Shown here: piece by piece, positions 3,531 through 57,576 of the stretch | Numbering within the stretch: the first letter of the stretch is position 1 | Layout of the letters: every line of letters begins with the position of its first letter | NCBI GenBank assembly: GCA_026004535.1 | Contig: BPJI01000001.1 | Location: 431,424 to 495,423, forward strand | Length of the DNA: 64,000 nucleotides | From: Candidatus Parcubacteria bacterium | GTDB taxonomy: Bacteria; Patescibacteriota; Minisyncoccia; UBA6257; HR35 | Direction of reading: 5' to 3' | Translations under genes and position numbers: made by a program | Notes under the pieces: model-generated | Told to the model about the DNA's origin: nothing | Databases searched by the model: none | The model's input: only the letters and a program-made list of their open reading frames with translations

Positions 3531-5432
3531 TTATAACTCTTTTTCTTTAATTTCAACAAAAATTTCTAATTCCTCTTTAGTAATTATCTCTTCTTTAATT
3601 TTACCTAAATGTTCTAAGGGCGTAGCGAAAATTTCCTTGATAATTGCTCGAGGATTAATTTTGTTTTTCTTATTAAATTCCATTTGATATTTTCTTCTTC
3701 TTTGGGTTTCCTTTATGGCAGCTTCTAATGATTTGGTTATTTTATCAGCATACAAAATTACTTTACCTTCTAAATGACGAGCACTTCTCCCGATTGCTTG
3801 GATTAATGTTGTTGTATTTCTTAGAAATCCTTCGCGGTCAGCATCTAAGATAGCTACTAAGGAAACTTCAGGCAAATCTAATCCTTCTCTTAGAAGATTA
3901 ACTCCGACCAAAACCTCAATTTCGCCTGTTCTTAATTTTTTTATAATCTCTGCTCTTTTTAAGGTTTTAATATCTGAATGTAAATAGTTCGCTTTAATTC
4001 CCTGCTCTAATAAAAATTCAGTTAAATTTTCGGCTGATCTTTTAGTTAAAGTTAAAACCAAAACTCTTTGATTTTTATCAAGTCTTTCTTTTATCTCTTT
4101 TAATAAATCTAAAACTTGATTTTTAGTTGGTCGCACTTCAATTTCTGGATCTAAAATACCTGTTGGCCTTACTAGTTGTTCAACGATCTGCGAAGAAATT
4201 TTTCTTTCAAAAGGTCCAGGAGTTGCTGAAACAAAAATAATCTGGAAATTTTTATTGAAAAATTCATCAAATGTTAAAGGCCGATTATCGATTGCTGAAG
4301 GTAATCTCCAGCCATATTCAACTAAAATTTCTTTTCTTTTTCGATCACCATTAGCCATTGCTCTTAATTGAGGAATGGCTAAGTGCGATTCATCAATAAA
4401 CAAAATTGTTTCTGATGGTAAATAATCTAATAAAGTATATGGTGGTTCACCTGGATTTCGAAAAGATAAATGCCTTGAATAATTTTCAATTCCAGAACAA
4501 TAACCATATTTTTCTAAAAGATGAATATCTAACAAGGTTCTTTGTTTAATTCTTTCAGCTTCAACAATTCTTCCCTGCTCCAAAAATTGCCAATATCTTT
4601 CTTTTAATTCTTGTTTGATATTTAAGATAGCAATGTCTAATTTTTCTTTGGGGGTGACAAAAAATTTAGCTGGAAAGATTTTAATATATTCTAATTCTTC
4701 ATAATCTCCAGTTATTTCTAATTTAAAAACATCCTCTCTTGATTTTTTGATTGTAAATTTTTTAATTGATTTTATGATTTTGTTTTGCCATTTAATTTCT
4801 AACATATAACTTCCGTCAGGGTTAAAAATGTAAATTCCTGAATTTTCTCGGTCATAAATATATGTTCCTGATCTGATTGTATTCAAACTTCCTTTTTCAT
4901 ATTGTAATGTTTTTAAATAATCAATAACATCTTTAAGGGAAATTTTTTGGCCAACATTTAAATTTAAACAAATATTTTTATATTCTTCAGGATCACCAAT
5001 GCCATAAATACAACTAATTGAGGAGACAATAATAAAATCTTTTCTAGTTAAAACACTTTCAATGGCAGCATGACGAAGTTGATCTAAAAGCTCATTAATT
5101 CTTGCATCTTTAGCAATATAAATATCTGTTTCAGGTAAATAAGCTTCCGGCTGGTAATAATCATAATAACTAACAAAATAATGAACTGCATTTTCAGGAA
5201 AGAAATATTTAAATTCTTGATAAAGTTGAGCCGCCAAAACTTTATTAGGTGAAAGAACCAAAGCAGGCCTTTGAGTTTTATAAATAACATTAGCCATAGA
5301 AAATGTTTTTCCACTGCCAGTCACTCCTAAAAGTGTTTGAAATCTATAATTTTTATTCAATCCGGCAACTAACTTTCTAATTGCTTGAGGCTGATCTCCA
5401 GATGGTTTGTAATCCGAAATCAATTTGAACAT
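3531..5432 (-). CDS. uvrB: excinuclease ABC subunit B
   Basis: 633 aa. Walker A GVTGSGKTF, UvrB helicase motifs and a C-terminal UVR-like helix. Confidence 0.9.
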   Translation of the reverse strand: MFKLISDYKPSGDQPQAIRKLVAGLNKNYRFQTLLGVTGSGKTFSMANVIYKTQRPALVLSPNKVLAAQLYQEFKYFFPENAVHYFVSYYDYYQPEAYLPETDIYIAKDARINELLDQLRHAAIESVLTRKDFIIVSSISCIYGIGDPEEYKNICLNLNVGQKISLKDVIDYLKTLQYEKGSLNTIRSGTYIYDRENSGIYIFNPDGSYMLEIKWQNKIIKSIKKFTIKKSREDVFKLEITGDYEELEYIKIFPAKFFVTPKEKLDIAILNIKQELKERYWQFLEQGRIVEAERIKQRTLLDIHLLEKYGYCSGIENYSRHLSFRNPGEPPYTLLDYLPSETILFIDESHLAIPQLRAMANGDRKRKEILVEYGWRLPSAIDNRPLTFDEFFNKNFQIIFVSATPGPFERKISSQIVEQLVRPTGILDPEIEVRPTKNQVLDLLKEIKERLDKNQRVLVLTLTKRSAENLTEFLLEQGIKANYLHSDIKTLKRAEIIKKLRTGEIEVLVGVNLLREGLDLPEVSLVAILDADREGFLRNTTTLIQAIGRSARHLEGKVILYADKITKSLEAAIKETQRRRKYQMEFNKKNKINPRAIIKEIFATPLEHLGKIKEEIITKEELEIFVEIKEKEL

Positions 5433-5439
5433 GATATAA

Positions 5440-5530
5440 TTATATCACTGACATTGAACTAACAGAACTGACACTGAAACTTACAGAATTAATATAATCT
5501 AAGTTCCATAAGTTCTGCGTTTGTATATTC
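5440..5530. repeat. cagaac/gttctg-word repeat element in the uvrB / phosphohexomutase divergent intergenic region
   Basis: The words aacagaactgacactgaaacttacagaatt are followed by inverted ttccataagttctgcg. Confidence 0.6.
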
Positions 5531-5534
5531 CAAA

Positions 5535-6947
5535 ATGCTCTTAACTGGTTATGATTTAAGAGGTATTTTTAAAAAAGAATTGACTTTTGATGTTATTTAT
5601 CAAGCAACTAAACAGTTTTTTAAGAAATTAAAAATTAGAAAAGCCATTTTGGCTGTTGATGCAAATAGAAATAATTTTTTAATTAAAGATTTCTTAGAAA
5701 GAAATTTCAATCTTGAGTTTATTGGCGTTCTACCAACGCCAATTTTTTATTATAAAGTCATTAAAATAAAAATTCCTGGAATTATGATTACTGCTTCTCA
5801 TTTGCCTTTAAAATATTCGGGGTTGAAATTTATTTTAGAAAATGGCGAACCGTGGAAACCTTATATTAGCGCGTTGCCTTCGGGTCATACCCCCGAAGCC
5901 CACAGCCCTCGGAGTGCTATCGTACGCACCTCTGCCGGAATGACCCTCAGGCAAACGCGCCGGATAATTAATTTACAAAAGCACCAGATAATTAAGGAAT
6001 ATTTTAAAACTTTATTTTCTATCATCAAACCGAAAAAGAAAATTTTTGTTTGTTTTGATAAGAAAAATTTTTTTCTTAATGCTTCCCTACCCTATTTTGA
6101 AAAATTAAAAATTTTTCATCAAGATAATTCTCCAATTAAGATTAAATCTGATTTAGACAATGACAGAATTTTTGTTTATCTTAAAAAAAGAAAAATTCAT
6201 AATGATTTAATTTTTTATTATTTAGCTCTTTTGCCTCAATATAAGAAATTGGCTGTGCCAATATTTTTCAGTCAAAAACTAAGACAAGAACTTATTAAAA
6301 AAGGTAAGAAGATTTATTTTATTCCAACTGGACACTATTATTTCAAAAAAGCATTCAAAAAATATAATTTAGACTTAGGTTTTGAACCAAGTGGTCATTT
6401 TTATATGTTTAAAGATTTAAAAACAGAATCGCCCTATTTGGCCTTAGGTTTATTTTTACATTTATTAGCAGAACTTACGGACCTAACACAGACAGAACGG
6501 ACCAAACAGAGAATAGCCTTGGAGGAAATTTTAAAATTAAATAATTCACTTCAACTTTATCGTTTTGATATTAAGAAAATACAATCAGAAGAAAATGTTG
6601 TCTCTTTTTTGAAGAAGAGATATAAGTTAAAATTAAAAAAGTTTGACGGTTATTTATTATTTCCAAAGGAAAAAACAGAACTTACAAAACTAACACAGAA
6701 TTTAAATAAAAATACTATCGCAGAACTTACTGAACTAACACAGAACTTACAGAAAAATACTACCTCAGAAATTGCAGAACTAACACAGAACTCGCAGAAA
6801 AATTCAGTGAGTTCTGCGTCAGTTCAGCATGGTTCTGCGTTCTACCTGTATTTAAGGAAAAGCAAAACAGAAAATAAATTAAGAGTATCTTTTGAAGGCG
6901 ACAAAAAAATTCTCAAAGAAATAAAACAATGGCTCATGAAGATTTAA
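5535..6947 (+). CDS. phosphoglucomutase/phosphomannomutase-family protein carrying in-frame repeat insertions
   Basis: TASHLP (active-site Ser, SHNP-like) and GFEPSGH (GEESGH-like) phosphohexomutase motifs. Interrupted by a GC-rich ~100-nt insert and by ELTxLTQN repeat blocks. Confidence 0.6.
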   Translation: MLLTGYDLRGIFKKELTFDVIYQATKQFFKKLKIRKAILAVDANRNNFLIKDFLERNFNLEFIGVLPTPIFYYKVIKIKIPGIMITASHLPLKYSGLKFILENGEPWKPYISALPSGHTPEAHSPRSAIVRTSAGMTLRQTRRIINLQKHQIIKEYFKTLFSIIKPKKKIFVCFDKKNFFLNASLPYFEKLKIFHQDNSPIKIKSDLDNDRIFVYLKKRKIHNDLIFYYLALLPQYKKLAVPIFFSQKLRQELIKKGKKIYFIPTGHYYFKKAFKKYNLDLGFEPSGHFYMFKDLKTESPYLALGLFLHLLAELTDLTQTERTKQRIALEEILKLNNSLQLYRFDIKKIQSEENVVSFLKKRYKLKLKKFDGYLLFPKEKTELTKLTQNLNKNTIAELTELTQNLQKNTTSEIAELTQNSQKNSVSSASVQHGSAFYLYLRKSKTENKLRVSFEGDKKILKEIKQWLMKI

Positions 6948-7933
6948 TGAAAAAAATTTTTAAGCTTTATCCTTTTATTGTTATTTTTGTTTTTATTATT
7001 TTGATTTCGCTTCATTTTGTTTATTCTGTTTTTGTTCCTTTGCTTATTGGTGAGAGAAAAGAAATTTATATTAATCCAGGAACAAAAATCTGGTTTTTAG
7101 CCCAAAATTTAGAAAAAAACGGTATTATTCGTTCTGCTTTTTATTTTAGATTTTTAGTTAATTTAAGAAATTCAAAAATCAAAGCTGGAATATATGAATT
7201 TAGTGGTTATTATAATTTATTAGATGTAATTCAAACTTTAGAAAAAGGAGGCCGAGGTGTAAAGATAACGATTATTGAGGGTTTAACTTTAAAAGAAATT
7301 GAAAAACTTTTAAAAGAAAAAGGATTTAATGTCGATCTGGCTAAATATAAATTAGCAGATTTCTCTGAAATTGATTTAAAAAATTATTTTCCGGCCGAAA
7401 GTAGTCTAGAAGGATTTTTAGCACCCGATACTTACGAATTCTTTCCTAATGATGATGAAAAAACAATTGTTCAAAAAATTTTAAAAAACTTTTCAAGAAA
7501 ATATTTACCTGAAATTTTAAAAGGAATGGATTTTAATTTATATCAAAGATTAATTTTAGCTTCAATAGTTGAAAAAGAGGCGAAGTATCAAGATGATTTT
7601 CCTATAATTGCTGGTATTTTGATTAAGAGACTAAAAAATAATAAACAATTAGAGGTTGATGCAGCTTTGGTTTATGAAAAATGTGGATTTGTTTTCTGTC
7701 AAGATGCTCTAAATAAAAAAGACCTTATTAAAGATTCTCCTTATAATACTTATAAAAAATTAGGCTTAACACCAACTCCGATTTCTAATCCTGGTATTTT
7801 AGCAATTAAATCAGTTAATAATCCCGTTCAGACTGATTATTGGTATTATCTAACTGATTCTGAAGGTCGAGCAATATTTGCTAAAACATTTAAAGAGCAT
7901 CAGGAAAACATTAAAAAATATCTAAAGAGATGA
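6929..7933 (+). CDS. mltG: endolytic murein transglycosylase MltG (YceG family)
   Basis: 334 aa. N-terminal TM helix, YceG fold, conserved LILASIVEKEA motif. Confidence 0.8.
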   Translation: MAHEDLMKKIFKLYPFIVIFVFIILISLHFVYSVFVPLLIGERKEIYINPGTKIWFLAQNLEKNGIIRSAFYFRFLVNLRNSKIKAGIYEFSGYYNLLDVIQTLEKGGRGVKITIIEGLTLKEIEKLLKEKGFNVDLAKYKLADFSEIDLKNYFPAESSLEGFLAPDTYEFFPNDDEKTIVQKILKNFSRKYLPEILKGMDFNLYQRLILASIVEKEAKYQDDFPIIAGILIKRLKNNKQLEVDAALVYEKCGFVFCQDALNKKDLIKDSPYNTYKKLGLTPTPISNPGILAIKSVNNPVQTDYWYYLTDSEGRAIFAKTFKEHQENIKKYLKR

Positions 7934-32164: not shown

Positions 32165-33142
32165 TTAAAAAGTTTCAAAATAAGAAAATCTATTTTTTGC
32201 TTTTCGCCAAATAATTTCTATTTTTTCAACCTTAGCTAATATTGGTCCTCGTTTTATTTTTTCTAAAAATTCTTGTAAATTCTTTTCTTTACCTTGAGCT
32301 AAAACCTCAATACTGCCATCTGTTAAATTTTTAGCATAACCAAAAATTCCTAAATTTTGTGCCCAATTACGGCAAAATAATCTAAAACCAACTCTCTGTA
32401 CTCTGCCATAAACTTTGACGTAAAATTCTAAATAATCTTTCTCTATATCTTCAAAACTTAATGCTTCTTCCAAGGTAAATTCATTTATTTTAGTTCTAAC
32501 TAAAGATTTTAAATAAGCACCACAACCTAATTTTTGACCAATATCATGAGCTAAACTTCTAATATAAGTTCCTGATGAAACTTCAACTTCAATTTTAAGG
32601 ATCTTTTCTTTTAAATCTAAAATTTTAATATTATAAATTTTTACTTTTCTTGGTTTTAAATCAACCTTTAAGCCTTTCCTTGCTAATTTATATGCTCTTT
32701 TGCCTTTTATTTTTATAGCTGAATAAGGTGGAGGAATTTGTTCTATCTCGCCAATAAAACCTGCTAATATTTTTTCTATCTCTGATATATTTAGGTTCGT
32801 ATCAGTTCGCGTTAAGCCATGAACCAGAGCAGAGCTCGGTTCATGGTCCTGAACCCTTCGTGGTTCAGGATTCGCATCGGTTCGCACTATGTTTCCGGTT
32901 ATATCATAAGTATCAGAGATAGCACCTAATTCAATTTCAGCAATATAAGTTTTTCTACTTTCTTTTAAAAATTTTGTTAGTTCTTTTGTATAGTCATCAA
33001 TTCCCAAAATTAAAAGTCCTTCAGCAAAAGGATCTAATGTTCCTCCATGCCCAACTTTTTTCTTAGTTAATTTTTTAAAATAATTAACAATCTGAACAGA
33101 AGTATAATTTTGGGGTTTATTAAACAGAACTAATCCTTCCAT
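32165..33142 (-). CDS. truB: tRNA pseudouridine(55) synthase TruB fused to a C-terminal acylphosphatase-like domain; contains an in-frame ggttc-word insert
   Basis: N-terminal TruB (HGGTLDPFAEGLLILGI). C-terminal VYGRVQRVGFR ... GYAKNLTDGSIEVLAQG acylphosphatase signatures. GC-rich insert at 32795-32905. Confidence 0.7.
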   Translation of the reverse strand: MEGLVLFNKPQNYTSVQIVNYFKKLTKKKVGHGGTLDPFAEGLLILGIDDYTKELTKFLKESRKTYIAEIELGAISDTYDITGNIVRTDANPEPRRVQDHEPSSALVHGLTRTDTNLNISEIEKILAGFIGEIEQIPPPYSAIKIKGKRAYKLARKGLKVDLKPRKVKIYNIKILDLKEKILKIEVEVSSGTYIRSLAHDIGQKLGCGAYLKSLVRTKINEFTLEEALSFEDIEKDYLEFYVKVYGRVQRVGFRLFCRNWAQNLGIFGYAKNLTDGSIEVLAQGKEKNLQEFLEKIKRGPILAKVEKIEIIWRKAKNRFSYFETF

Positions 33143-38890: not shown

Positions 38891-39694
38891 TCATTTTTTT
38901 TGACAATTAATGCAATAAAAAGCACTTCTTCCTCCTAAAATTACTCTTTTTATCTTTTCATAACATCGCCGACATTTTTCATCTTCTCTCTGATAAACTA
39001 AAAATTTTTCTTGATATTTTCCTTTTGATTCATCTGGTTTGAAATAGAATCTAAAACTTGTTCCTTCATATTTAATTGCTTTTTTCAAGATTTTTTTAAT
39101 TGCATTTAATAGTTTTTTTATTTTATCGTCAGTTAATTTATTTGCTGGAATTTGAGGATGAATCTTAGCTAAAAATAATGACTCATTAGCATAAATGTTT
39201 CCAATTCCAGCAATTTTTGCTTGATCCATCAGAACTAATTTTATTGGTCTTTTGGTCTTATTTAAAATATTTTTTAAATCATCAAAAGTTAAATTTAAAG
39301 CATCAATACCCAGTTTTTTTATCTCTTTATTTAAATTTTGCTCATCAACGACCTTTACCCAACCAAACCTGCGAACATCATTAAAAACAAGATAACCTCT
39401 ATCTAAAACAAACACAACCCTTATTGAATTACTGATTTCTGAATTTCTTAAGAAATTTAGAAATAAAATTTGCCCGGTCATCTTTAAATGAAACATCAAA
39501 TTATAACCATTACTTAAAACAAAGATCAAAATTTTACCTTTTCTTTCAAGACTTAGAACTTTCGATCCCTCAATCTTTTTCTTTTCACCTTTAAAACTTC
39601 TCTTATCAAAAATTTCAACATTTTTTATTTTTTGTCCTATAATTTCTTTTTCTAAGTATCTCTTAATCGTTTCTACTTCAGGAAGTTCAGGCAT
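38891..39694 (-). CDS. fpg: formamidopyrimidine-DNA glycosylase (Fpg/Nei family)
   Basis: N-terminal MPELPEVE and a C-terminal C4 zinc finger, CRRC...CINC. Confidence 0.85.
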   Translation of the reverse strand: MPELPEVETIKRYLEKEIIGQKIKNVEIFDKRSFKGEKKKIEGSKVLSLERKGKILIFVLSNGYNLMFHLKMTGQILFLNFLRNSEISNSIRVVFVLDRGYLVFNDVRRFGWVKVVDEQNLNKEIKKLGIDALNLTFDDLKNILNKTKRPIKLVLMDQAKIAGIGNIYANESLFLAKIHPQIPANKLTDDKIKKLLNAIKKILKKAIKYEGTSFRFYFKPDESKGKYQEKFLVYQREDEKCRRCYEKIKRVILGGRSAFYCINCQKK

Positions 39695-39840: not shown

Positions 39841-39990
39841 ATTTTTACCCAGATTATAACCAGATAATACTACCCGGATATTAACCGGATATAACTACTC
39901 GGATTCAAACCGGATACAAATACCCGGATATAAACCGGTATTCATCCGGGTAATCTATCCGGTATTAATCCGGGCATATTAATAAAATCT
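39841..39990. repeat. ccggat-word repeat element
   Basis: taacccagat / aaccagat / acccggat words, then catccgggtaa / atccggtatt / aatccgggca words. Confidence 0.8.
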
Positions 39991-39993
39991 AAT

Positions 39994-40383
39994 ATGAATA
40001 GTTTAGTTATTAAAACAAAAAAGAAAAAAGAAATAATTGATATTACTGAAAAAATAAATGAGATTTTATCAAAACAAGAAAAAGATTCTGGACTAGTTTT
40101 TCTTTTTGCTTTGCATACAACCTGCGCTTTAACAACTGCCGACCTAGATCCTGGAGCTGAAAAAGATTATATTAATGCCTTTGAGAAAATAAGTCCTCAA
40201 GCAAACTTTATTCATCCTCATAATCCCGAACATTTTCCTGATCATTTTTTATCTTCAATTATTGGCACTTCCCTTCTTCTTCCTTTTGAAAACAAAAACT
40301 TAATTTTAGGCACATGGCAAAGAGTAATTCTAATTGAATTTGATGGACCGAGAGAAAGGAAAATCATAGTCAGGTTAATATAA
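39994..40383 (+). CDS. yjbQ: YjbQ/UPF0047 family protein (secondary thiamine-phosphate synthase-like)
   Basis: LHTTCALTTADLDPGAEKD and LGTWQRVILIEFDGPRERKIIVR, matching UPF0047. Confidence 0.7.
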   Translation: MNSLVIKTKKKKEIIDITEKINEILSKQEKDSGLVFLFALHTTCALTTADLDPGAEKDYINAFEKISPQANFIHPHNPEHFPDHFLSSIIGTSLLLPFENKNLILGTWQRVILIEFDGPRERKIIVRLI

Positions 40384-40401: not shown

Positions 40402-41832
40402 CTATCTCAGATTTTGTTTATATCTTTTTTCTAATTCTCTAAATCTATACCAAAGAAAAGCTAATAGGAAAATAATCAAAAACAAAAGAAATAACCAAAA
40501 AATATTTACTCCCCCAAAAGCTCCGATAAAACCTAACAGACTTGTATTTATACCTTTAATTTGCAAATCAGAGGAGAATGAATAATTAGCTCCAGGCGTT
40601 GAGACTTTAAAATCAATATTATAATTTTTAGTCTTTACTACACCCGAACAAGGAACATCTACTATCCAATCAACAAGACGACTTGAATTTGGTTCTAAGA
40701 CAAAATCTCTTTCGCTAGGTTTAAACCAATTACCAACTTCTCCATTTGCTTTAATGGTTATTTTTCTATTTACAGAAGTATTATTTATTAAGGTTAATTG
40801 AATTGTATTTTGAGCACAAACATTCACAGAATAGGTAGGTTCCACAAGTAAATCAATTAATTTATTATTATTTGTTTTTTGAATAGGTGTCGGCACCTCA
40901 ATACTACGGGTTACTGTTCGAGTTACTGTCCGAGTCAAATAAGTAGTTCGACCAACTGAAATTAATATTTCCTTAGACGACTGGCTGCCTTGATTATCGG
41001 TAACAATTAACTTAACCCTATAAGCACCGGAGGCTAAAGCACGATTAAAAGTTTTAAGATTAGAAACCGTTTCGTTGTTAATTATCCATTCATAAGAAAT
41101 AATAAAACCATCTGGATCATAAGATTGAGAAGCATCAAAAGTGACAATGGTGCCTGGCCGAATATCCTCGGGAGTAAAAGCAATAACAGCTATGGGTAAT
41201 TGATTTATTATTGACGAATTTTGCCCAGAAGAAATATTAACCGAACAAGAGGCTGATTTAGTTTCATTACCAGAGGTAACAGTAATATTAGCTGTATAAG
41301 TACCAGCCGAAGAGAAAGACCTAGAGCAAGTTGAGGAAGAACCACTGCAAGCACCCGACCAAGAATAAGAATAAGATCCATTGCCACCGCTTACATTAGC
41401 TGTAAAAACAACTGTTTGATTTACATTAGCTGGGTTAGGCGAAGCAGAACAAGAAACTTGAAGATTTGAAAAGACACAATTCGTTCTAAAAGAATAAATA
41501 TTACCATAATTTGTACCTCCGCTATTTCTGGAAGCAGCTCGATAAAAGTAAGTAGTACAAGGTTGAAGACCTGTAATAGTTTGGCAAAATCCTTGAGGAG
41601 GATTAGGAATAAAAAGAAATTGATCAGGCGTTCTGTTAGTCAAAGAAAAGCTCGATGTTCCCCATTCAAACCAAGCAGTTATATTAGGATCACCACCATT
41701 GTCTTGAATTTCACCAACCAAAGTAGCCCAAGTATTACCATAAGTTGTTTGAGCTGGACAAGTTTGAGCAAAAACATTGCTTCCCTCTAAGATTATAAAT
41801 ACTATCAAGATTATTAAAAATCTTCTTAACAT
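40402..41832 (-). CDS. cell-surface protein: signal peptide, FN3-like domain, two PKD domains, C-terminal TM anchor
   Basis: WFEWGTS...GLQPCTTYFYRAASRN FN3-like signature. Two PKD-like blocks (VVFTANVSGGNGSYSYSWSG... and IVTFDASQSYDPDGFIISYEW). C-terminal hydrophobic helix plus a basic tail. Confidence 0.7.
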   Translation of the reverse strand: MLRRFLIILIVFIILEGSNVFAQTCPAQTTYGNTWATLVGEIQDNGGDPNITAWFEWGTSSFSLTNRTPDQFLFIPNPPQGFCQTITGLQPCTTYFYRAASRNSGGTNYGNIYSFRTNCVFSNLQVSCSASPNPANVNQTVVFTANVSGGNGSYSYSWSGACSGSSSTCSRSFSSAGTYTANITVTSGNETKSASCSVNISSGQNSSIINQLPIAVIAFTPEDIRPGTIVTFDASQSYDPDGFIISYEWIINNETVSNLKTFNRALASGAYRVKLIVTDNQGSQSSKEILISVGRTTYLTRTVTRTVTRSIEVPTPIQKTNNNKLIDLLVEPTYSVNVCAQNTIQLTLINNTSVNRKITIKANGEVGNWFKPSERDFVLEPNSSRLVDWIVDVPCSGVVKTKNYNIDFKVSTPGANYSFSSDLQIKGINTSLLGFIGAFGGVNIFWLFLLFLIIFLLAFLWYRFRELEKRYKQNLR

Positions 41833-41876
41833 TTTTACTTAAATTCTAACATATTTTTTTATTTTGTCAATACTAA

Positions 41877-42293
41877 TTAAAAAATAATCCAATTTGACTT
41901 TTTATCTGGATAACTATTTTGAATTGGATTGGTTTTGTTTTTAAATTTTTGACATAAAGTTTTGATCTCTTTTATTTCGCCATAATTTATACCTGCAGTA
42001 TTTTGGGCAACGGCTCGATAATAGTAAGTAGTACAAGGCTTAACGCCTCTTTCTCTTAAACAAAAAATCTGAGAATCTCTCAAAATTAATTCTTTGGTTT
42101 TTTTATCTAGCTTATCTTTATTTAGTCCGTATTCAAACCAAACTTTAACTTCCTTATCACCACCAAGTCCATCTAACCTGCCGACAAAAGTTATAAAACG
42201 AAAACTCGTAGCAGTTTTACTAGGACAACTGACAGCAAAACTAAAATTAACTAAAATTAAAATGTTTAAAATTAATAATAATTCTTTTTTCAT
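41877..42293 (-). CDS. secreted FN3-like domain protein (divergent paralog of the N-domain of 40402-41832)
   Basis: VWFEYGLNKDKL...GVKPCTTYYYRAVAQNTAGINYGEIKEIKTLC, the same signature as its neighbours. Confidence 0.55.
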   Translation of the reverse strand: MKKELLLILNILILVNFSFAVSCPSKTATSFRFITFVGRLDGLGGDKEVKVWFEYGLNKDKLDKKTKELILRDSQIFCLRERGVKPCTTYYYRAVAQNTAGINYGEIKEIKTLCQKFKNKTNPIQNSYPDKKSNWIIF

Positions 42294-42307
42294 TTCCTAA
42301 ATTTCGT

Positions 42308-42991
42308 TTATAAAGTTATAACAGGTGGTAAGGTGATAACAGCTGGTGGTCTTACCGGTTGATTAACGGTTACCGAACAAGAGGCTGATTTAGTTTCATT
42401 ACCAGAGGTAACAGTAATATTAGCTGTATAAGTACCAGCCGAAGAGAAAGACCTAGAGCAAGTTGAGGAAGAACCACTGCAAGCACCCGACCAAGAATAA
42501 GAATAAGATCCATTGCCACCGCTTACATTAGCTGTAAAAATAACTGTTTGATTTACATTAGCTGGGTTAGGCGAAGCAGAACAAGAAACTTGTAAAGGAG
42601 CACATTGAGTAGTAAAGGAGTAAATAGATCCTCTTGAAGTTCCAGCAGAATTTCTAGCAACGGCTCGATAAAAGTAAGTAGTACAAGGTTGAAGACCTGT
42701 AATAGTTTGGCAAAATCCTTGAGGAGGATTAGGAATAAAAAGAAATTGATCAGGCGTTCTGTTAGTCAAAGAAAAGCTCGATGTTCCCCATTCAAACCAA
42801 GCAGTTATATTAGGATCACCACCATTGTCTTGAATTTCACCAACCAAAGTAGCCCAAGTATTACCATAAGTTGTTTGAGCTGGACAAACCCTTTGAACAC
42901 TAGTTTGAGCAATAGCTTGTTTTTTTGAAAAAATATATTGACCTAAAAAAACTAATCCAATGATTAGAAACAAGAAAGATGTTTTTTTCAT
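42308..42991 (-). CDS. truncated tandem paralog of the surface protein (signal, FN3-like, one PKD) ending in a VITLPPVITL tail
   Basis: About 540 nt nearly identical to 41230-41800 except for a ~75-nt divergent patch. Confidence 0.65.
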   Translation of the reverse strand: MKKTSFLFLIIGLVFLGQYIFSKKQAIAQTSVQRVCPAQTTYGNTWATLVGEIQDNGGDPNITAWFEWGTSSFSLTNRTPDQFLFIPNPPQGFCQTITGLQPCTTYFYRAVARNSAGTSRGSIYSFTTQCAPLQVSCSASPNPANVNQTVIFTANVSGGNGSYSYSWSGACSGSSSTCSRSFSSAGTYTANITVTSGNETKSASCSVTVNQPVRPPAVITLPPVITL

Positions 42992-43009
42992 ATTTTTTAA
43001 TTAGATTCT

Positions 43010-43489
43010 TTAATAAGTAACGACCGCCGGTAAAGTAATAACTACAGGGAGCCTAATAACTTTTGTCCCCGACCACCAAACAATATAACCCACCAAGTTT
43101 GAATCATTACAAATCCAACCTTCGTCTGAATTACAAAATTTATCAAAAACATCAATTTGAATTGTTTTATTAGAACCAACCGAAGAGAATGATGTTAAAC
43201 GTTGTCTACCTTGTAATGGGCCTATCATGTTTCTTACGCATTCGGGCATTTTCCCATCACATACAAAAACATATATCCATTCGTTATTATTCCTTGTTTC
43301 ACACCAACCTTCATTTATATTGCATTTAGCTTGACAATTATAAAAATTAGCATCATGACCACTACCGCAAATATTAGTGTACTCTCCTCCAAATGGCGGA
43401 ATATAACCAGCAATAGCTTTTAAGGCTAAAAACAAATTAACAAACGAAATTATACTAATTATTAAAAATAATCTCTTTTTCATGGCCAA
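43010..43489 (-). CDS. cysteine-rich secreted protein ending in a RLPVVITLPAVVTY tail
   Basis: 159 aa with a signal peptide and 10 or more Cys. Shares the C-terminal ITLP motif with 42308-42991. Confidence 0.55.
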   Translation of the reverse strand: MAMKKRLFLIISIISFVNLFLALKAIAGYIPPFGGEYTNICGSGHDANFYNCQAKCNINEGWCETRNNNEWIYVFVCDGKMPECVRNMIGPLQGRQRLTSFSSVGSNKTIQIDVFDKFCNSDEGWICNDSNLVGYIVWWSGTKVIRLPVVITLPAVVTY

Positions 43490-43617
43490 ATATTGATAAC
43501 TCCAATTTATAGATCAATATAAAAATTTTATCACAAAAAAGGTAATTTGTCAAGATCTAAAAATGCAAGAAAATAAGTATTTTTTAAGCTAGTTTATTTA
43601 GTATATATTTTAAGATT

Positions 43618-44435: not shown

Positions 44436-45161
44436 ATGGACTTTTTAAAAATAATTACAAAATATAAAAACAGACCAATACCTGAAAGAAAGTTTGATCA
44501 ATTCTATGCTACGGCCGATACTGTTATTAAAAGAAGCAACCTATTATTGAGATATCAAAAAAAATTCAAATTTTCTAAAATTATTTTTCTTGGTGATGAT
44601 GATTTAACTTCAATTGCTTTGGCTTTAACTAAAAAATTTGATGAAATTATTGTTTTAGATATTGATGAAAGAATTTTAAATTTTATTAATGAAGTTACTG
44701 AAAAGGAAAAATTAAATGTAAAAATATTTAAACATAATATTTGCAACCCTTTATCAAAAGATTTACTTAAAACCCAAACCAATTTTATTTTCTTTGATCC
44801 ACCTTATAATCCTTCGGCAGTTAAAATTTGGCTGATTAGGGCATTGGAAATTCTTTTAGGTTTAGGAAGTAATAAAAAAAGAAAAAATATAGAATTTTTA
44901 AAAAACAAATTTATTTTTATGTGTTATGGTTATACAGATAAAAGTTTTGAAAGAGGTTTAAAGATTCAAGAAATAATTCATAATTTAGGTTTAATCATTC
45001 AAGAAAAATTTAGAAAGTTTAATAAATATACCGGAGCCGAGACAATTAATAATGAAAGTGATTTTTATATTATTCAACCAACGCCTTTGGTTAAATTAGA
45101 AACAATAGATAAGTTTAAAAACAAAAGTTTTGAAGAAAAAATTTATACTTGGCAAAATTGA
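44436..45161 (+). CDS. BpsA-like aminopropyltransferase (DUF43; N4-bis(aminopropyl)spermidine synthase family)
   Basis: IIFLGDDDLTSIALAL and FFDPPYN, the signature motifs of DUF43/BpsA. Confidence 0.6.
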   Translation: MDFLKIITKYKNRPIPERKFDQFYATADTVIKRSNLLLRYQKKFKFSKIIFLGDDDLTSIALALTKKFDEIIVLDIDERILNFINEVTEKEKLNVKIFKHNICNPLSKDLLKTQTNFIFFDPPYNPSAVKIWLIRALEILLGLGSNKKRKNIEFLKNKFIFMCYGYTDKSFERGLKIQEIIHNLGLIIQEKFRKFNKYTGAETINNESDFYIIQPTPLVKLETIDKFKNKSFEEKIYTWQN

Positions 45162-45308
45162 TTAACATAAAATTCCTAATCCCAAAATCAAAACTTTTTT
45201 ATTTTTTAAATTTATCATCTTAATTTTTTATAAAAATATATTATTCAATATCTATTCCCCAATCCTACAAACTGGATTAATTCTTCACTGCTACGTAGCA
45301 ATAGACTT

Positions 45309-45818
45309 TTATACTAATTTTGATAGTTTTTTATATAACTTTGATTTTCTATCTAATTTGCTTAGTACTTGATACAGTTTTTTCTTTTGCTTTTTGTTCA
45401 TAATTTTTATAATCTCTTCTATTAAAAGTTCTGGCCAAAACATAGATGGCATTCTTCTTTTTATTTTTCTCCAATCTTTCTCTATATAATCTAAAATAGT
45501 CGGTTGTTTTATTTCTTTCTTGATTCTTTCCTGAATCAATCTGAAACCTTCCCCACTTTCGTATAACCACACAGCAACTTTGGCTATAGTCCCATGGCTT
45601 ACTTTAACAACTTTTTCTATTTCTCTATAACTTAAACCTTTTAGTAATAATTTGGCAATTTTAATTCTTTTGGCTAACATAATTACTTCTTGTTTTGTCA
45701 AAAGATCAGTAATGAAATGCATAATTTCTTGACGATTTTTTAAAACAGAAATTGCTTCGCAAAATTCCTCTAGAAGCTCTGCTTTCTCCTGATCTGAAAT
45801 TGATTTGTATTTAGGCAT
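45309..45818 (-). CDS. TrpR-like YerC/YecD-family HTH regulator
   Basis: LLTKQEVIMLAKRIKIAKLLLKGLSYREIEKVVKVSHGTIAKV, the YerC/YecD pattern. Confidence 0.6.
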   Translation of the reverse strand: MPKYKSISDQEKAELLEEFCEAISVLKNRQEIMHFITDLLTKQEVIMLAKRIKIAKLLLKGLSYREIEKVVKVSHGTIAKVAVWLYESGEGFRLIQERIKKEIKQPTILDYIEKDWRKIKRRMPSMFWPELLIEEIIKIMNKKQKKKLYQVLSKLDRKSKLYKKLSKLV

Positions 45819-45914
45819 TTTTAAAACATGAAATCTAAATAATATAAAATATCTAAATTTTATGTAAAAATAACCAAATTAAATATAACACAAAATAAAC
45901 AAAAAAACCAAAAT

Positions 45915-45956
45915 GGTCAATTTTTCTATTGCTACGTAGCAATAGAAAAATTGACC
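45915..45956. promoter_or_regulatory. perfect 42-nt palindrome (candidate operator or terminator) upstream of the yerC-like gene
   Basis: ggtcaatttttctattgctacgtagcaatagaaaaattgacc equals its own reverse complement. Its core TGCTACGTAGCAATAG recurs at 45289-45304 and 10592-10607. Confidence 0.6.
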
Positions 45957-46009
45957 AAATTAGGGATAATTAAAGATGAGTTTTTGATTTATAATTTAAT
46001 TAAACACAA

Positions 46010-51113: not shown

Positions 51114-51512
51114 TTAGAACAAACTAAGACTGAATGGCCAAGGCTGAGGAACAAAGAGTAAGGCTAAAACTCCTGCCCAGATAGCCATATTCTTCATGAA
51201 ATTAATCATTTCCATCATTTTCACTTGTGGATCTTGGACCGTCCAAAAATTATGAATCATAAATGTAACAGGCAAAAAGAAAAGCGTTAGAGCTAAAACT
51301 CCGACTTGAATATAAGCACCAAATAAAATTGAAAATCCACCAATTAAAAGTAAAAGACCTGTAACAATGACAGACAATTTAGGAGCTGGTACATTTTTAG
51401 TTTGAGCATACTGAGACATCATATTCAGATTTTTAAAATGATTAAAACCACTAAACAAAAAATAAAAACCCAAAATTACTCTTGAAAGTAGCAGAATGTA
51501 ATCTGAAATCAT
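51114..51512 (-). CDS. DoxX-like small membrane protein
   Basis: 132 aa with 4 TM helices. Confidence 0.45.
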   Translation of the reverse strand: MISDYILLLSRVILGFYFLFSGFNHFKNLNMMSQYAQTKNVPAPKLSVIVTGLLLLIGGFSILFGAYIQVGVLALTLFFLPVTFMIHNFWTVQDPQVKMMEMINFMKNMAIWAGVLALLFVPQPWPFSLSLF

Positions 51513-56240: not shown

Positions 56241-57164
56241 TCATTTAATCCTATTTTTAAGGAAAAAATATCCCAAAATCATTAAAATTATACTTAAAAT
56301 TGATATAATAATAGTTGATAAAATACTCTCTTGAAGTGGTAGGGGTATGTTCATTCCATAATAACTGAAAATAATGGTTGGGATAAACAAAATTATTGTA
56401 ATAATGGTTAGATTTAAAATTCTTTTATTAATTGATCTATCCATAATCATTCTATAATTATCTTTTATAATTTTCAATCTTTTAATGTTGGAGTTAATTA
56501 TTTCTATAAGTTCTAACATCTCAAAAGAAAGATCGTCAACATTACTCTTTTCCTCTTGTAAAAATTCCAGATATTTTTTAAATAATAACTTTTCGTAGAC
56601 TTTATAAATAGTAATCAACGTAGAAAGGGTTGTGCTTAATAAAACTTCTAATTTTGAAAATTCAATTATTTTTTTATCATCAAGTTCAGAATATATACTA
56701 CTATAGAATTCTTCCGAACCTTTTATCAATTTATCAACTAAATTTCTATAGGATTTATTTATTAAATTTAATTTTAAAAGAAAAAATTTAGTTTTTTGAG
56801 TAGTAAAAAAATTAATTTGATCGTTGGTAAGCAAATTAAAAATAGCGGTTTTTTTATTAAAAATAGTAAAAATGTATTTAGGTGTCAAAATAATTAAAAT
56901 CGGCAAAAGTTTTATTTCATTATTTTCAAAGTGAGGTATTTTTAAAAAAATATACAAAAAGTTTTTTACGATTTCTAAGCGTGGTTGGGTAAATTCATCA
57001 ATAACATCTTCTAAGGAATTTCTATTAATTTTAAAATTCTTAGCTAAAACGGTAATATCATCTTTATTAAAATTTTCGACAAAAATCCACGATCCAGGAG
57101 TTGGCTTTTCCAATTTTAATAAATTTCTATCTTTTAAAGATTTTTTATAAATATTTATTTCCAT
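56241..57164 (-). CDS. corA: CorA-family magnesium transporter
   Basis: C-terminal two TM helices with the YGMNIPLP (GMN) motif. Confidence 0.7.
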   Translation of the reverse strand: MEINIYKKSLKDRNLLKLEKPTPGSWIFVENFNKDDITVLAKNFKINRNSLEDVIDEFTQPRLEIVKNFLYIFLKIPHFENNEIKLLPILIILTPKYIFTIFNKKTAIFNLLTNDQINFFTTQKTKFFLLKLNLINKSYRNLVDKLIKGSEEFYSSIYSELDDKKIIEFSKLEVLLSTTLSTLITIYKVYEKLLFKKYLEFLQEEKSNVDDLSFEMLELIEIINSNIKRLKIIKDNYRMIMDRSINKRILNLTIITIILFIPTIIFSYYGMNIPLPLQESILSTIIISILSIILMILGYFFLKNRIK

Positions 57165-57576
57165 ATTTAAAATAACTAACTAAATTCTTTAAAAAATTAT
57201 CTAAAAACAAAACTAAAAAAATAATAATTGATGAACCATCAGCTATTAAACAATAAATGCAAAAAGATTTTAAAACAAAAGCCTGAAGATAAATTAAATA
57301 AAGAGCAAAAATAAATCCTAAAGAGGAAACAACCTTTAATAAAACCTTAGGCTTTTCAAAAAAATTCAAAATCAAGATACTTCCAAAATAAAAGACTCCC
57401 CATAAAGCAACTGGCAATCCCAAAAATTTACTATATTCACTTTTCAAAACAAAATCACAACCTACATCAGGCAAACAGAAAGGCGAGTCGTTTTTAATAC
57501 CAAGGTAAAATAAATAACTCGCAACCAAAAATCCAATCAACCCTAAAATAAAAATCAAATTTTTCTGTTTTAGCAT
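57145..57576 (-). CDS. vitamin K epoxide reductase (VKOR) family protein
   Basis: TM helices with CLPDVGC and CIYC cysteine pairs. Confidence 0.6.
   Translation of the reverse strand: MLKQKNLIFILGLIGFLVASYLFYLGIKNDSPFCLPDVGCDFVLKSEYSKFLGLPVALWGVFYFGSILILNFFEKPKVLLKVVSSLGFIFALYLIYLQAFVLKSFCIYCLIADGSSIIIFLVLFLDNFLKNLVSYFKYGNKYL

Follow-up and report, generated by a model that had tools for sequence, protein, structure and literature searches.

A conserved four-gene surface-protein cassette of Patescibacteria with gene conversion between two paralogs and a C-terminal peptide that may act as a docking strand

The ORF listing of the window (the whole 64,000-nt stretch analysed) showed four neighbouring genes on the minus strand, in the order D-B-C-A (Table 1). 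The source bacterium is a tiny member of the Parcubacteria from a hot spring. All four proteins begin with a hydrophobic, signal-peptide-like segment, which is a helix in the AF2 models of B and D. In the case of gene D, the ATG at 43483 corresponds to the deposited 157-aa protein, and an extended ORF call starts at a TTG at 43489. Its Cys-rich domain is a beta-sandwich to which no family was assigned. This D is a short form: in its relatives, an additional Gly linker and then another Ig-like domain precede the C-terminal tail. Protein C has neither the tail nor a membrane helix. Protein A is the anchored member and is composed of a signal peptide, an N-terminal Cys-type FN3-like domain (FN3c), a PKD domain, a second PKD domain (PKD_4/K319L-like), a linker, a FixG_C-like Ig domain, a membrane segment and a basic end; its orthologs follow the same domain plan. 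The description of A in the sequence-only reading, as a full-length copy closing with a TM helix and a basic tail, was borne out. Two promoter-like sites were noted, both by consensus match only, and the region overall is not enriched for sites of this consensus. The site in the C-A gap is lineage-specific because A overlaps the end of C in relatives. An alternative genetic code was rejected, as all stops are TAA and table 11 gives housekeeping ORFs of full length. Stop-codon readthrough or frameshifting that would join the genes was also rejected: the D-B frame is not conserved (in frame here, offset by 1 in L001), and B and C are out of frame.

Table 1. Features of the four-gene locus, in positions of the window.
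Feature	Position	Strand	Description
Promoter-like site upstream of D	43525..43553	(-)	TTGACA-17-TAAAAT, TG-extended; 11/12 matches
Gene D	43010..43483	(-)	157 aa; predicted signal peptide, Cys-rich beta-sandwich domain, ITLP tail
D tail	43013..43054	(-)	RLPVVITLPAVVTY-COOH
Gene B	42308..42991	(-)	227 aa; predicted signal peptide, FN3c, PKD, ITLP tail
FN3c of B	42602-42886	(-)	
B tail	42311..42352	(-)	RPPAVITLPPVITL-COOH
Gene C	41877..42293	(-)	138 aa; predicted signal peptide, FN3c, Lys-rich linker, NWIIF-COOH
FN3c of C	41952-42227	(-)	
Conserved NWIIF-COOH end of C	41880-41894	(-)	
Promoter-like site in C-A gap	41843..41870	(-)	TTGACA-16-TAGAAT, TG-extended; 11/12 matches
Gene A	40402..41832	(-)	476 aa; anchored member; multi-domain
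FN3c of A	41476-41760	(-)	
Conversion block 1 in A	41537..41761	(-)	equals B 42663-42887; 225 nt identical; B-type characters
Unconverted patch in A	41461..41536	(-)	against B 42593-42662; 54% identity
Conversion block 2 in A	41240..41460	(-)	equals B 42372-42592; 221 nt, single G/A mismatch at 41409/42541
Beta-prone linker TRTVTRTVTRS of A	40894-40947	(-)	
Hydrophobic membrane segment of A	40447-40539	(-)	residues 432-462
Basic end of A	40405-40446	(-)	directly after membrane segment

The PKD domains were assigned with the Pfam models PF00801 and PF18911. In A they scored 67.5 bits (PKD_4, cutoff 27) and 44.8 bits (PKD, cutoff 23.5), and in B 32.0 bits (cutoff 23.5), all above the Pfam gathering threshold. 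For the FN3-like domain, Pur_ac_phosph_N (PF16656) and fn3 (PF00041) were considered; the scores against Pur_ac_phosph_N, 24.4-25.8 bits (25.8 for B), lie below the cutoff of 30. The AF2 model of B has a mean pLDDT of 87.7, with values above 90 in FN3c; it has a tandem FN3/Ig fold and matches tandem FN3 structures with an E of 4e-6. The FN3c domain has a short A strand, and therefore no strand is obviously missing from it. It always forms the mature N-terminus of A, B and C, and in all 53 cases its cysteine lies within residues 21-59, never at an internal position.

The D-B-C-A cassette was found in about 25 Patescibacteria/Paceibacterota contigs, in several chromosomal neighbourhoods. These loci, several of them from hot-spring samples, are all that are known in the public data searched. 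Gene order and the gaps of 13-16 nt are kept in L001-L008, L010, L012, L014-L019 and about 17 metagenome loci, and the flanking genes represent at least four different chromosomal contexts. The order is that of a variable secreted 'tip' protein (D here), B (FN3c and Ig/PKD), C (FN3c only) and A (FN3c, Ig/PKD and a membrane anchor), and every cassette with enough sequence ends in a tail-less, membrane-anchored FN3c protein. The predicted domains show B to share the first two domains of A. These comparisons establish the locus as a conserved, predicted cell-surface cassette of a small Patescibacteria (Parcubacteria/Paceibacterota) lineage. The cluster had been taken for a tandem duplication; it is not a recent or local one, given the recurring gene order and the distinct role of each of the four genes.

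Near-identical segments of A and B had been placed at 41230-41800 and 42361-42935. The near-identity is real, but its extent is shorter: it was measured at 41240-41761 in A and 42372-42887 in B, and the signal peptides of the two genes differ. It consists of two blocks on either side of a diverged patch of 76 columns, which holds 32 mismatches and a 6-nt indel. In the protein, the patch runs through FN3c from the end of strand F over the FG loop and strand G, and takes in the linker to the PKD domain. In total, 38 of the 39 differing columns fall inside this one window of 76 columns (binomial probability ~1e-28), and an identical run as long was obtained in 0 of 100,000 random placements. The within-genome A/B DNA identity is 1.000 in block 1 and 0.978 in block 2, compared with 0.753 and 0.873 in L001 and 0.721 and 0.820 in L004. 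Since A and B are only 72-87% identical in relatives, the flanks of the patch were homogenised recently by B-to-A conversion. The identity between orthologs in block 1 is 0.90 for B-B and 0.85 for A-A. The patch keeps its orthology, A going with A-orthologs (0.73, 0.71) and B with B-orthologs (0.72, 0.74).

Paralogs that are closer than orthologs, segment-wise incongruence and sharp boundaries were all found, and the alignments show that the first two domains of A were recently overwritten by B sequence through gene conversion. The event involved two tracts or one discontinuous tract, with the patch left in its ancestral, paralog-specific state. Such recombination recurs in the lineage, with further conversion in one relative, a duplication hybrid in one and a deletion hybrid in another; reciprocal A/B crossover hybrid genes are represented by B' of L036 and 'A' of L039. 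It could be argued that the near-identical blocks were produced during assembly, as a chimeric consensus of diverged paralogs, since exact repeats of 225 and 221 nt separated by 1.1 kb are hard for short-read assemblers. However, more than 20 independent assemblies reproduce the A/B paralogy and gene order, each patch lies in the gene predicted by orthology, and partial homogenisation and crossover hybrids arise independently in other assemblies, which leaves this explanation hardly credible. The sequence-only reading was right that recombination between paralogs shapes these genes, as seen in the conversion blocks here and the hybrids at related loci. Its view of the patch as a product of conversion that generates surface variation has to be reversed, because the patch is the part that escaped. 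Judged from the alignments, conversion at this locus homogenises and does not diversify. No invertible element was seen in the window. The likeness to the concerted evolution of adjacent surface-protein paralogs includes within-genome paralogs closer than orthologs, sharp tract boundaries, a mosaic and unequal-crossover hybrids; the A/B case is an ordinary one, with neither a silent cassette archive nor a sign of programmed antigenic variation. It warns that a diverged patch flanked by near-identical blocks may be a sign of homogenisation and not of diversification.

Proteins D and B end in a common peptide of 12 residues with the consensus P-x-V-I-T-L-P-[PA]-V-x-T-[LY]-COOH, here called the ITLP tail. 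In the six-frame translation of the window it occurs in D and B only, and the back-translated pattern, including the stop codon, gave 2 matches against 0.00 expected. Among 47 proteins retrieved by homology to the domains and not to the tail, 33 carry it at the exact C-terminus, in at least six architectures. No residue follows the motif in any of 50 proteins. Columns P216, V218, T220, L221, P222 and T226 are invariant in an alignment with the second domain swapped (A1). One part of the tail-conservation data, that from L006-L047, was ascertained by a pattern that includes the motif. The proline at -12, a position outside the search pattern, is present in all 41 sequences and draws on all four Pro codons, and the invariant T and P positions use 3-4 codons. 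The tail is kept when the preceding domain is swapped or deleted, as in the short D forms, from which a whole domain has been lost. This pattern of codon use and retention indicates purifying selection at the amino-acid level. The shared motif described by the sequence-only reading is therefore real, conserved and apparently undescribed: no match to the tail was found in Pfam, NCBIfam or the searchable literature, where the motif strings returned unrelated eukaryotic matches only.

Further proteins ending in the motif, for which a search had been suggested, were found at related loci. A search of 185,579 species genomes gave 13 strict matches, 10 of them real and located at 8 loci, with 1-2 per locus. 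Cassette genes are visible at 7 of the 8 loci, and the stretch of L016 shows a B-type gene only. About 17 real metagenome loci were added, and all those long enough to show neighbours are in the cassette. A locus has 1-2 copies of the tail, rarely 3. A 42-residue C-terminal profile gave 36 word-sharing candidates, none at E <=10, and an exhaustive HMMER search with a 45-residue profile was swamped by giant multi-PKD repeat proteins and is not a census of the tail. The mean Kyte-Doolittle hydropathy of the tail is about 1.7 (1.75 in D), compared with about 0 for the whole proteins. In the monomer models, the D tail is disordered (pLDDT <50) and the B tail is an extended coil with a pLDDT of ~80 (residues 21-32 score 42); no beta ladder between the B tail and B's own FN3c was seen in the monomer model.

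The tail resembles the first PKD strands (A/A' and the start of B) in sequence. In tandem PKD (K319L-like) repeat surface proteins its counterpart is the junction between PKD domains, '...VTVN..PPVA.AG.DQTITLP...VTL', and it also aligns with the beginning of the second PKD domain in A; A and B themselves hold bona fide PKD domains. In the cassette proteins, however, the segment stands by itself at the C-terminus. The ANAGxDQ loop and the remainder of the domain are missing, and its conservation far exceeds that of the surrounding domains.

The tail had been proposed as a sorting signal with a cognate sortase. A dedicated enzyme encoded elsewhere, either a protease or a sortase-like transpeptidase, would then recognise the tail and process D and B or attach them covalently to the wall or to lipid. 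Like known sorting signals, the motif is modular and invariant and occurs strictly at the C-terminus; it also contains L-P-x-x-x-T, and the enzyme could lie outside the inspected DNA, which makes up 64 of 556 kb. As in LPXTG, PEP-CTERM, PGF-CTERM and GlyGly-CTERM systems, a short conserved C-terminal motif is found on unrelated secreted proteins of one lineage. The membrane helix and basic cluster that all of these share are both absent here, where the protein ends five residues after L-P. The tails read TLPAVVTY and TLPPVITL, with L-P but no T-G at +3/+4, and the membrane span and positive end needed by sortase substrates do not follow (0 residues after the motif in 50/50). The layout of motif, helix and Arg/Lys, together with a sorting-domain model, defines the PEP-CTERM, PGF-CTERM, IPTL-CTERM and GlyGly-CTERM signals; the tail lacks this layout and has no Pfam or NCBIfam sorting-domain match (NCBIfam scans of A, B, C and D at E <=1). 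No sortase, exosortase, archaeosortase or rhomboid domain was detected in the 59 window ORFs of >=110 aa (64 of 556 kb), and none flanks the cassette in four genomic contexts. Finally, the carriers number only 1-3 per locus, all within one cassette wherever the contig extends to neighbours. We consider a sorting signal distinctly unlikely.

A target that is not a protein or that lies outside the cassette, such as the cell's own membrane or wall or the surface of a host cell, is improbable in our view, even though the tail is hydrophobic (mean hydropathy 1.7), C ends in a hydrophobic WIIF after Lys residues, resembling an interfacial membrane anchor, and attachment to host cells is the way of life of Patescibacteria. 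At twelve residues, two of them proline, the tail is too short and rigid to form a membrane helix, the invariant Thr and Pro positions suggest a stereospecific protein site over lipid, and the strict link to one cassette points to a partner within it. The tail could also act in cis, capping an exposed beta-sheet edge or stabilising the last Ig-like domain with no partner. It directly follows an Ig-like domain in most proteins, and the pLDDT of ~80 in the B model contrasts with 42 for the floppy residues 21-32. Yet the tail is invariant while the preceding domain varies (PKD, another Ig type, D's second domain or D's Cys-rich domain), the D tail is predicted to be disordered, and the B model shows no beta ladder. 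A cap need not be the final residues, which the tail is in 50/50 proteins, and we find such a role quite improbable. That the tail is a functionless remnant, a first PKD strand left over from the origin of B by truncation of an A copy, would agree with its resemblance to PKD-PKD junctions and with its position exactly where A's second PKD begins (NQPPVPVIAF...). Nevertheless, the tail is the most conserved segment of proteins otherwise 40-55% identical, varies synonymously, is shared by unrelated proteins (D-type and other), and is kept when a domain is deleted, so we regard a remnant as highly improbable.

The explanation we prefer is that the ITLP tail is a docking strand, which would join another protein of the cassette in trans through beta-strand addition. 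The likeliest acceptor would be FN3c, the domain with which mature A, B and C begin. D and B, which have no anchor of their own, would be tethered to the membrane-anchored A, giving a head-to-tail assembly of membrane-A, then B, then D that would need no sortase-type enzyme. To the whole reading, made up of the conserved cassette, the A/B conversion and, as we infer, a docking strand in D and B, we give a little less than an even chance. The broader proposal that the tail and FN3c are two halves of an enzyme-free, chaperone-free, head-to-tail strand-donation system, forming a membrane-anchored, modular stalk with an exchangeable tip in ultrasmall Patescibacteria, is on balance unlikely. Several observations speak against a docking strand: the FG-loop type does not co-vary with the tail type across cassettes and thus gives no co-evolution signal for the acceptor, the number of tails (1-2) does not simply match that of FN3c domains (2-3), FN3c already has its short A strand, and the B tail makes no beta ladder with B's own FN3c in the monomer model. 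A role of the unconverted FG-loop patch in setting tail specificity was rejected, as B orthologs with an A-type loop (L007, L015, L028, L044) keep the same tails.

The closest comparison for a docking strand is with type V pili, which are assembled by C-terminal hydrophobic donor strands (PMC13655056). Their subunits are joined non-covalently by a short hydrophobic strand that must be a free C-terminus, and anchor and stalk carry donor strands while the tip has none (PMC13655056). Like the FimA/Mfa operons of Bacteroidota, the cassette is a small operon-like set of anchor, stalk or adaptor, and tip proteins with beta-sandwich domains. The ITLP tail, known here from sequence, is likewise C-terminal, hydrophobic and unstructured alone, which is compatible with a donor strand but not diagnostic of it. 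The polarity is reversed, however, with a membrane-anchored protein that lacks the tail and a tip that carries it. Type V pilins consist of two transthyretin-like beta-sandwich domains, whereas FN3 and PKD domains are found here. They also have a lipoprotein Cys at +1; in the cassette proteins, 2-3 residues separate the A-x-A of the cleavage context from C-P and there is no lipobox, and they are not lipoproteins because the Cys stands 2-4 residues past the cut. No site for gingipain-type maturation is evident in them, and the phylum and the cell envelope are different.

Patescibacteria (CPR) account for a large share of bacterial diversity. To our knowledge, little has been established on how their surface proteins are held or assembled. 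The cassette offers a small test case, with four genes, an invariant 12-residue peptide on the anchorless members and an anchored partner, and its variable first gene could encode an adhesive tip. As a docking strand, the tail would represent a new minimal route to surface structures from common FN3/PKD modules and might provide a portable peptide tag, within a reach limited by the narrow distribution (~25 loci). The strand-donation system, if true, would be a new class of donor-strand-linked appendage built of FN3/PKD modules with a polarity opposite to that of type V pili, and its stalk could be a host-attachment device.

The window was taken from the 556,583-bp contig of the KatS3mg096 MAG ('Candidatus Parcubacteria bacterium KatS3mg096') and has a GC content of ~28%. 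The four adjacent surface-protein genes D, B, C and A are separated by gaps of 18 nt (D-B), 14 nt (B-C) and 44 nt (C-A). The stop codons of the cluster are TAA, and the housekeeping genes are full length when read with table 11. D and B (KatS3mg096_483 and KatS3mg096_482) are both annotated as hypothetical. One of the region's two best promoter-like sites is upstream of D and the other of A; both are consensus matches only.

Positions in the window of the four cassette genes and of the segments of the A/B alignment
Feature	Coordinates	Strand	Size or difference
Gene D	43010-43483	-	157 aa
Gene B	42308-42991	-	227 aa
Gene C	41877-42293	-	138 aa
Gene A	40402-41832	-	476 aa
Block 1	A 41537-41761 = B 42663-42887	-	225 nt identical
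Patch	A 41461-41536, B 42593-42662	-	76 columns, 32 mismatches and a 6-nt indel, 54% identity
Block 2	A 41240-41460, B 42372-42592	-	221 nt, one G/A difference

In A, an FN3-like domain whose sequence match is weak precedes two PKD-type domains and a FixG_C-like Ig domain; a hydrophobic segment and then a basic end close the protein. B combines the same FN3-like domain with one PKD domain. AF2 models B with confidence (mean pLDDT 87.7), and the model matches structures of tandem FN3/Ig domains. In C the FN3-like domain is the sole domain and is followed by a Lys-rich linker with the end NWIIF. FN3c is the name used here for the FN3-like domain that A, B and C share. It begins with C-P, 2-4 residues past the predicted signal-peptide cut, and was the first domain of the mature protein in all 53 occurrences and internal in none. 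The C orthologs share the Lys-rich linker and a conserved C-terminus, (K/N/D)W(I/V/F)IF-COOH (window 41880-41894), in a comparison covering L001, L004, L006-L008, L010, L012, L014, L015, L021, L028, L029, L031, L036 and L044, all related loci from other assemblies. This end resembles the initial residues of the membrane segment of A (NIFWLF, QNLWLL) and may be an interfacial membrane anchor. The C proteins of two distant cassettes, L017 and L019, end in KLNTK and have an extra Ig domain. The window also encodes a VKOR-family protein (57145-57576) and a DoxX protein (51114-51512), which point to extracytoplasmic disulfide-bond formation and fit the cysteine content of the secreted proteins D, B and A, which have 8-10 each.

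D ends with RLPVVITLPAVVTY and B with RPPAVITLPPVITL; apart from these two ITLP ends, already seen in the sequence-only reading, the window has no such motif. The search was extended beyond it and other carriers of the tail were found. Of 47 proteins retrieved by domain homology, 33 carry the motif; it forms their very end in every case and is spread over at least six architectures. The tail consensus can be read as two hexapeptides, P-x-V-I-T-L and P-(P/A)-V-x-T-(L/Y). In the main clade, the first-gene proteins mostly end in V(V/I)TY and the B proteins in V(T/Q)TL. An alignment of proteins with a swapped second domain showed that P216, V218, T220, L221, P222 and T226 are invariant, with identity dropping to ~42% outside the tail. 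In D of the window and two other short forms, a Gly linker and a whole domain are lost and the tail is kept in register. In the 41 distinct sequences that code for the tail, the Pro at -12, which lies outside the search pattern, is invariant with all four codons used, and 3-4 codons occur at the invariant Thr and Pro positions; for L006-L047, positions -10 to -1 were selected by the pattern itself and do not count as independent evidence. With a mean KD of 1.7, the tail is hydrophobic. It has no Pfam or NCBIfam model, and the motif strings were absent from the relevant literature in a literature search. Each locus has one or two copies (rarely three), and their carriers are members of one cassette that have no anchor. 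The tail is a real, undescribed, lineage-restricted motif; it is under selection, modular and confined strictly to the C-terminus.

The four genes had been read as a tandem duplication; this view was abandoned, as the same arrangement was seen across contigs of other lineages. Loci L001-L005, reached via B and D homologs, have the four cassette genes in the same order with gaps of 13-16 nt. A scan of 185,579 species, one genome per species, with a back-translated pattern of the tail plus stop gave 13 matches at 11 loci. Eight of these loci are on Patescibacteria-type contigs, seven of them with further cassette genes, and the other three are chance matches in other phyla, away from ORF ends; the fetched stretch of L016 shows a B-type gene alone. 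The same kind of pattern applied to the metagenome collection gave 27 loci, ~17 of them real and located in a cassette wherever the contig was long enough to show neighbours. One of the eight Patescibacteria-type loci, the contig L014 (JAWBTN010000099.1, 4155 bp), carries a D-B-C cassette with an architecture nearly identical to those of Patescibacteria; its binning as 'Candidatus Aenigmatarchaeota archaeon' is probably an error and not an archaeal occurrence. Flanking genes vary by lineage. The window has SIMPL and UPF0047, the largest group an ATP-cone protein and phosphoglycerate mutase, and another group RtcB and a P-type ATPase; in KatS3mg097 they encode a membrane protein and a putative TatD-type hydrolase (from N-terminal sequence only). 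By the distant cassette of L017, an intein (Hint and Intein_splicing matches) interrupts the RtcB RNA ligase gene (4317-7238). The distant cassettes keep the plan. Their first gene encodes 2xPKD, a large N-terminal domain with 2xPKD, 2xFN3 with Ig, or another beta-rich domain; B may have a different Ig domain replacing PKD, C is sometimes missing, and the last gene always encodes FN3c, Ig-type domains and a membrane anchor. D-B-C-A is a conserved cassette.

The near-identical stretches of A and B and the diverged patch between them, noticed from the sequence alone in these four adjacent genes, are present in the ORFs and the alignment, although the boundaries first given were slightly too generous. 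The A/B alignment covers A 41240-41761 and B 42372-42887, starting at the first Cys of the mature protein and running through the first PKD domain, and the patch holds 38 of the 39 differing columns (P ~1e-28). A codon-wise comparison of A with B was made for the window and two relatives, L001 and L004. In block 1, A/B identity was 1.000 in the window, 0.753 in L001 and 0.721 in L004, and orthologs reached 0.90 (B-B) and 0.85 (A-A). The corresponding values for block 2 were 0.978, 0.873 and 0.820, with orthologs at most 0.82. In the patch, A of the window showed identities of 0.73 and 0.71 to its orthologs versus 0.54 to its own B, and B was likewise nearer its orthologs (0.72, 0.74). Judged by these identities, the flanks were recently homogenised and the patch is an unconverted remnant. 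Recombination between A and B had thus been recognised correctly in kind, and its detail was reversed. An assembly artefact is an unlikely source of the near-identical blocks: more than 20 independent assemblies speak against it, as does the correct orthology of the patch. The shared blocks of the window have B-type characters (CPAQTTYG, a gapless SSFSLTNRTP and LQVSCSASPNPANV), which indicates conversion from B into A, and the closer match between paralogs than between orthologs in block 2 of L001 indicates that conversion recurs. Locus L036 has the gene order D-B-C-B'-C-A, in which B' (6096-6848) joins an A-type 5' part to a B-type tail. In L039, B and C are absent, and the 'A' gene (4960-6399) has a B-type signal peptide and start on an A-type body. 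These two genes look like reciprocal products of unequal crossover between A and B. The patch codes for the last part of strand F, then the FG loop and strand G, and for the linker that leads into the PKD domain. Several B orthologs have an A-type FG loop with unchanged tails, so nothing indicates protection of the patch for partner specificity. The A/B conversion is ordinary concerted evolution.

Other features of the window were also recorded. The divergent intergenic region that adjoins the cassette, with fpg (38891-39694, minus strand) on one side and the UPF0047 gene (39994-40383, plus strand) on the other, contains an array of some nine CCGGAT(A/T) motifs spaced 11-14 nt apart (39846-39973; TRF period 25, 3.7 copies), which may serve as binding sites of a regulator. 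A perfect 22+22 nt palindrome (TGGTCAATTTTTCTATTGCTAC / GTAGCAATAGAAAAATTGACCA) at 45914-45957 and a related copy of TGCTACGTAGCAATAGA at 45289-45332 lie on opposite sides of a TrpR-family HTH gene (45309-45818) and are candidate operator sites flanking their own regulator. A BpsA_C (branched-chain polyamine synthase C-terminal domain) protein (44436-45161) and AdoMet decarboxylase (1919-2296) form a gene pair typical of thermophiles, in line with the hot-spring origin to which the MAG names point. A single ORF (32165-33142) encodes an unusual fusion of TruB pseudouridine synthase with a C-terminal acylphosphatase domain. Near the gene of a TrwB/VirD4-like coupling-protein ATPase (12976-15414, 812 aa), a GTG-initiated Laminin_G_3 (concanavalin-like) ORF (9747-10229) looks 5'-truncated or misannotated at its start.

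The B tail (NQPVRPPVVITLPPVTTL-stop) starts exactly where the second PKD domain of A begins (NQPPVPVIAFAPDTI... in A orthologs). When the C-terminal 45 residues were used for an exhaustive profile search, most of the proteins retrieved were giant tandem-PKD proteins, whose domain junctions read '...VTVN-x-x-N-x-PPVA-N-AG-x-DQ-T-ITLP-x-x-x-VTL-xGSGS'. On both grounds the tail looks like the first strands of a PKD domain (A/A' and the start of strand B), without the ANAGxDQ loop or the remainder of the domain. Together with the likeness of the C end to the membrane segment of A, this makes B and C look like truncated relatives of A, each with a short stub of the next element. A neutral remnant of such truncation is contradicted by the conservation of the tail. 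A sortase- or exosortase-type sorting signal, as first proposed, is disfavoured: zero residues follow the motif, substrates are very few, and no enzyme of this kind is encoded in the cassette, beside it or in the 64-kb window. A cap acting in cis would fit the B tail, which AF2 models as an extended coil with pLDDT ~80 and without a beta ladder, but not the varied domains that precede the tail or the predicted disorder of the D tail (pLDDT <50). Binding to membrane, wall or host is possible.

Docking within the cassette is the most likely role of the tail when set against enzyme-mediated sorting. We infer a docking peptide because the tail is selected, modular and C-terminal, its carriers are anchorless, the cassette is enzyme-free, and every cassette that is covered far enough has a tail-less, membrane-anchored FN3c protein. 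Such a peptide would keep both D and B attached to another protein of the cassette, most simply via beta-strand addition, a proposal to which we give somewhat less than an even chance. FN3c would be the preferred acceptor, since it is the sole domain common to all anchors and B and since it follows a mirror-image positional rule, being always at the free N-terminus; the cassette comparison found no co-variation pointing to the acceptor. In type V pili, the link between subunits is non-covalent and is made by a hydrophobic donor strand at the C-terminus, whose end is free (PMC13655056). Docking in the cassette would be alike in its hydrophobic C-terminal strand, whereas fold and polarity would differ, and neither lipidation nor protease maturation would be involved. 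The distribution is narrow and the docking mechanism is a proposal; within that reach, the cassette is a clean, testable lead on surface-protein assembly in ultrasmall bacteria.
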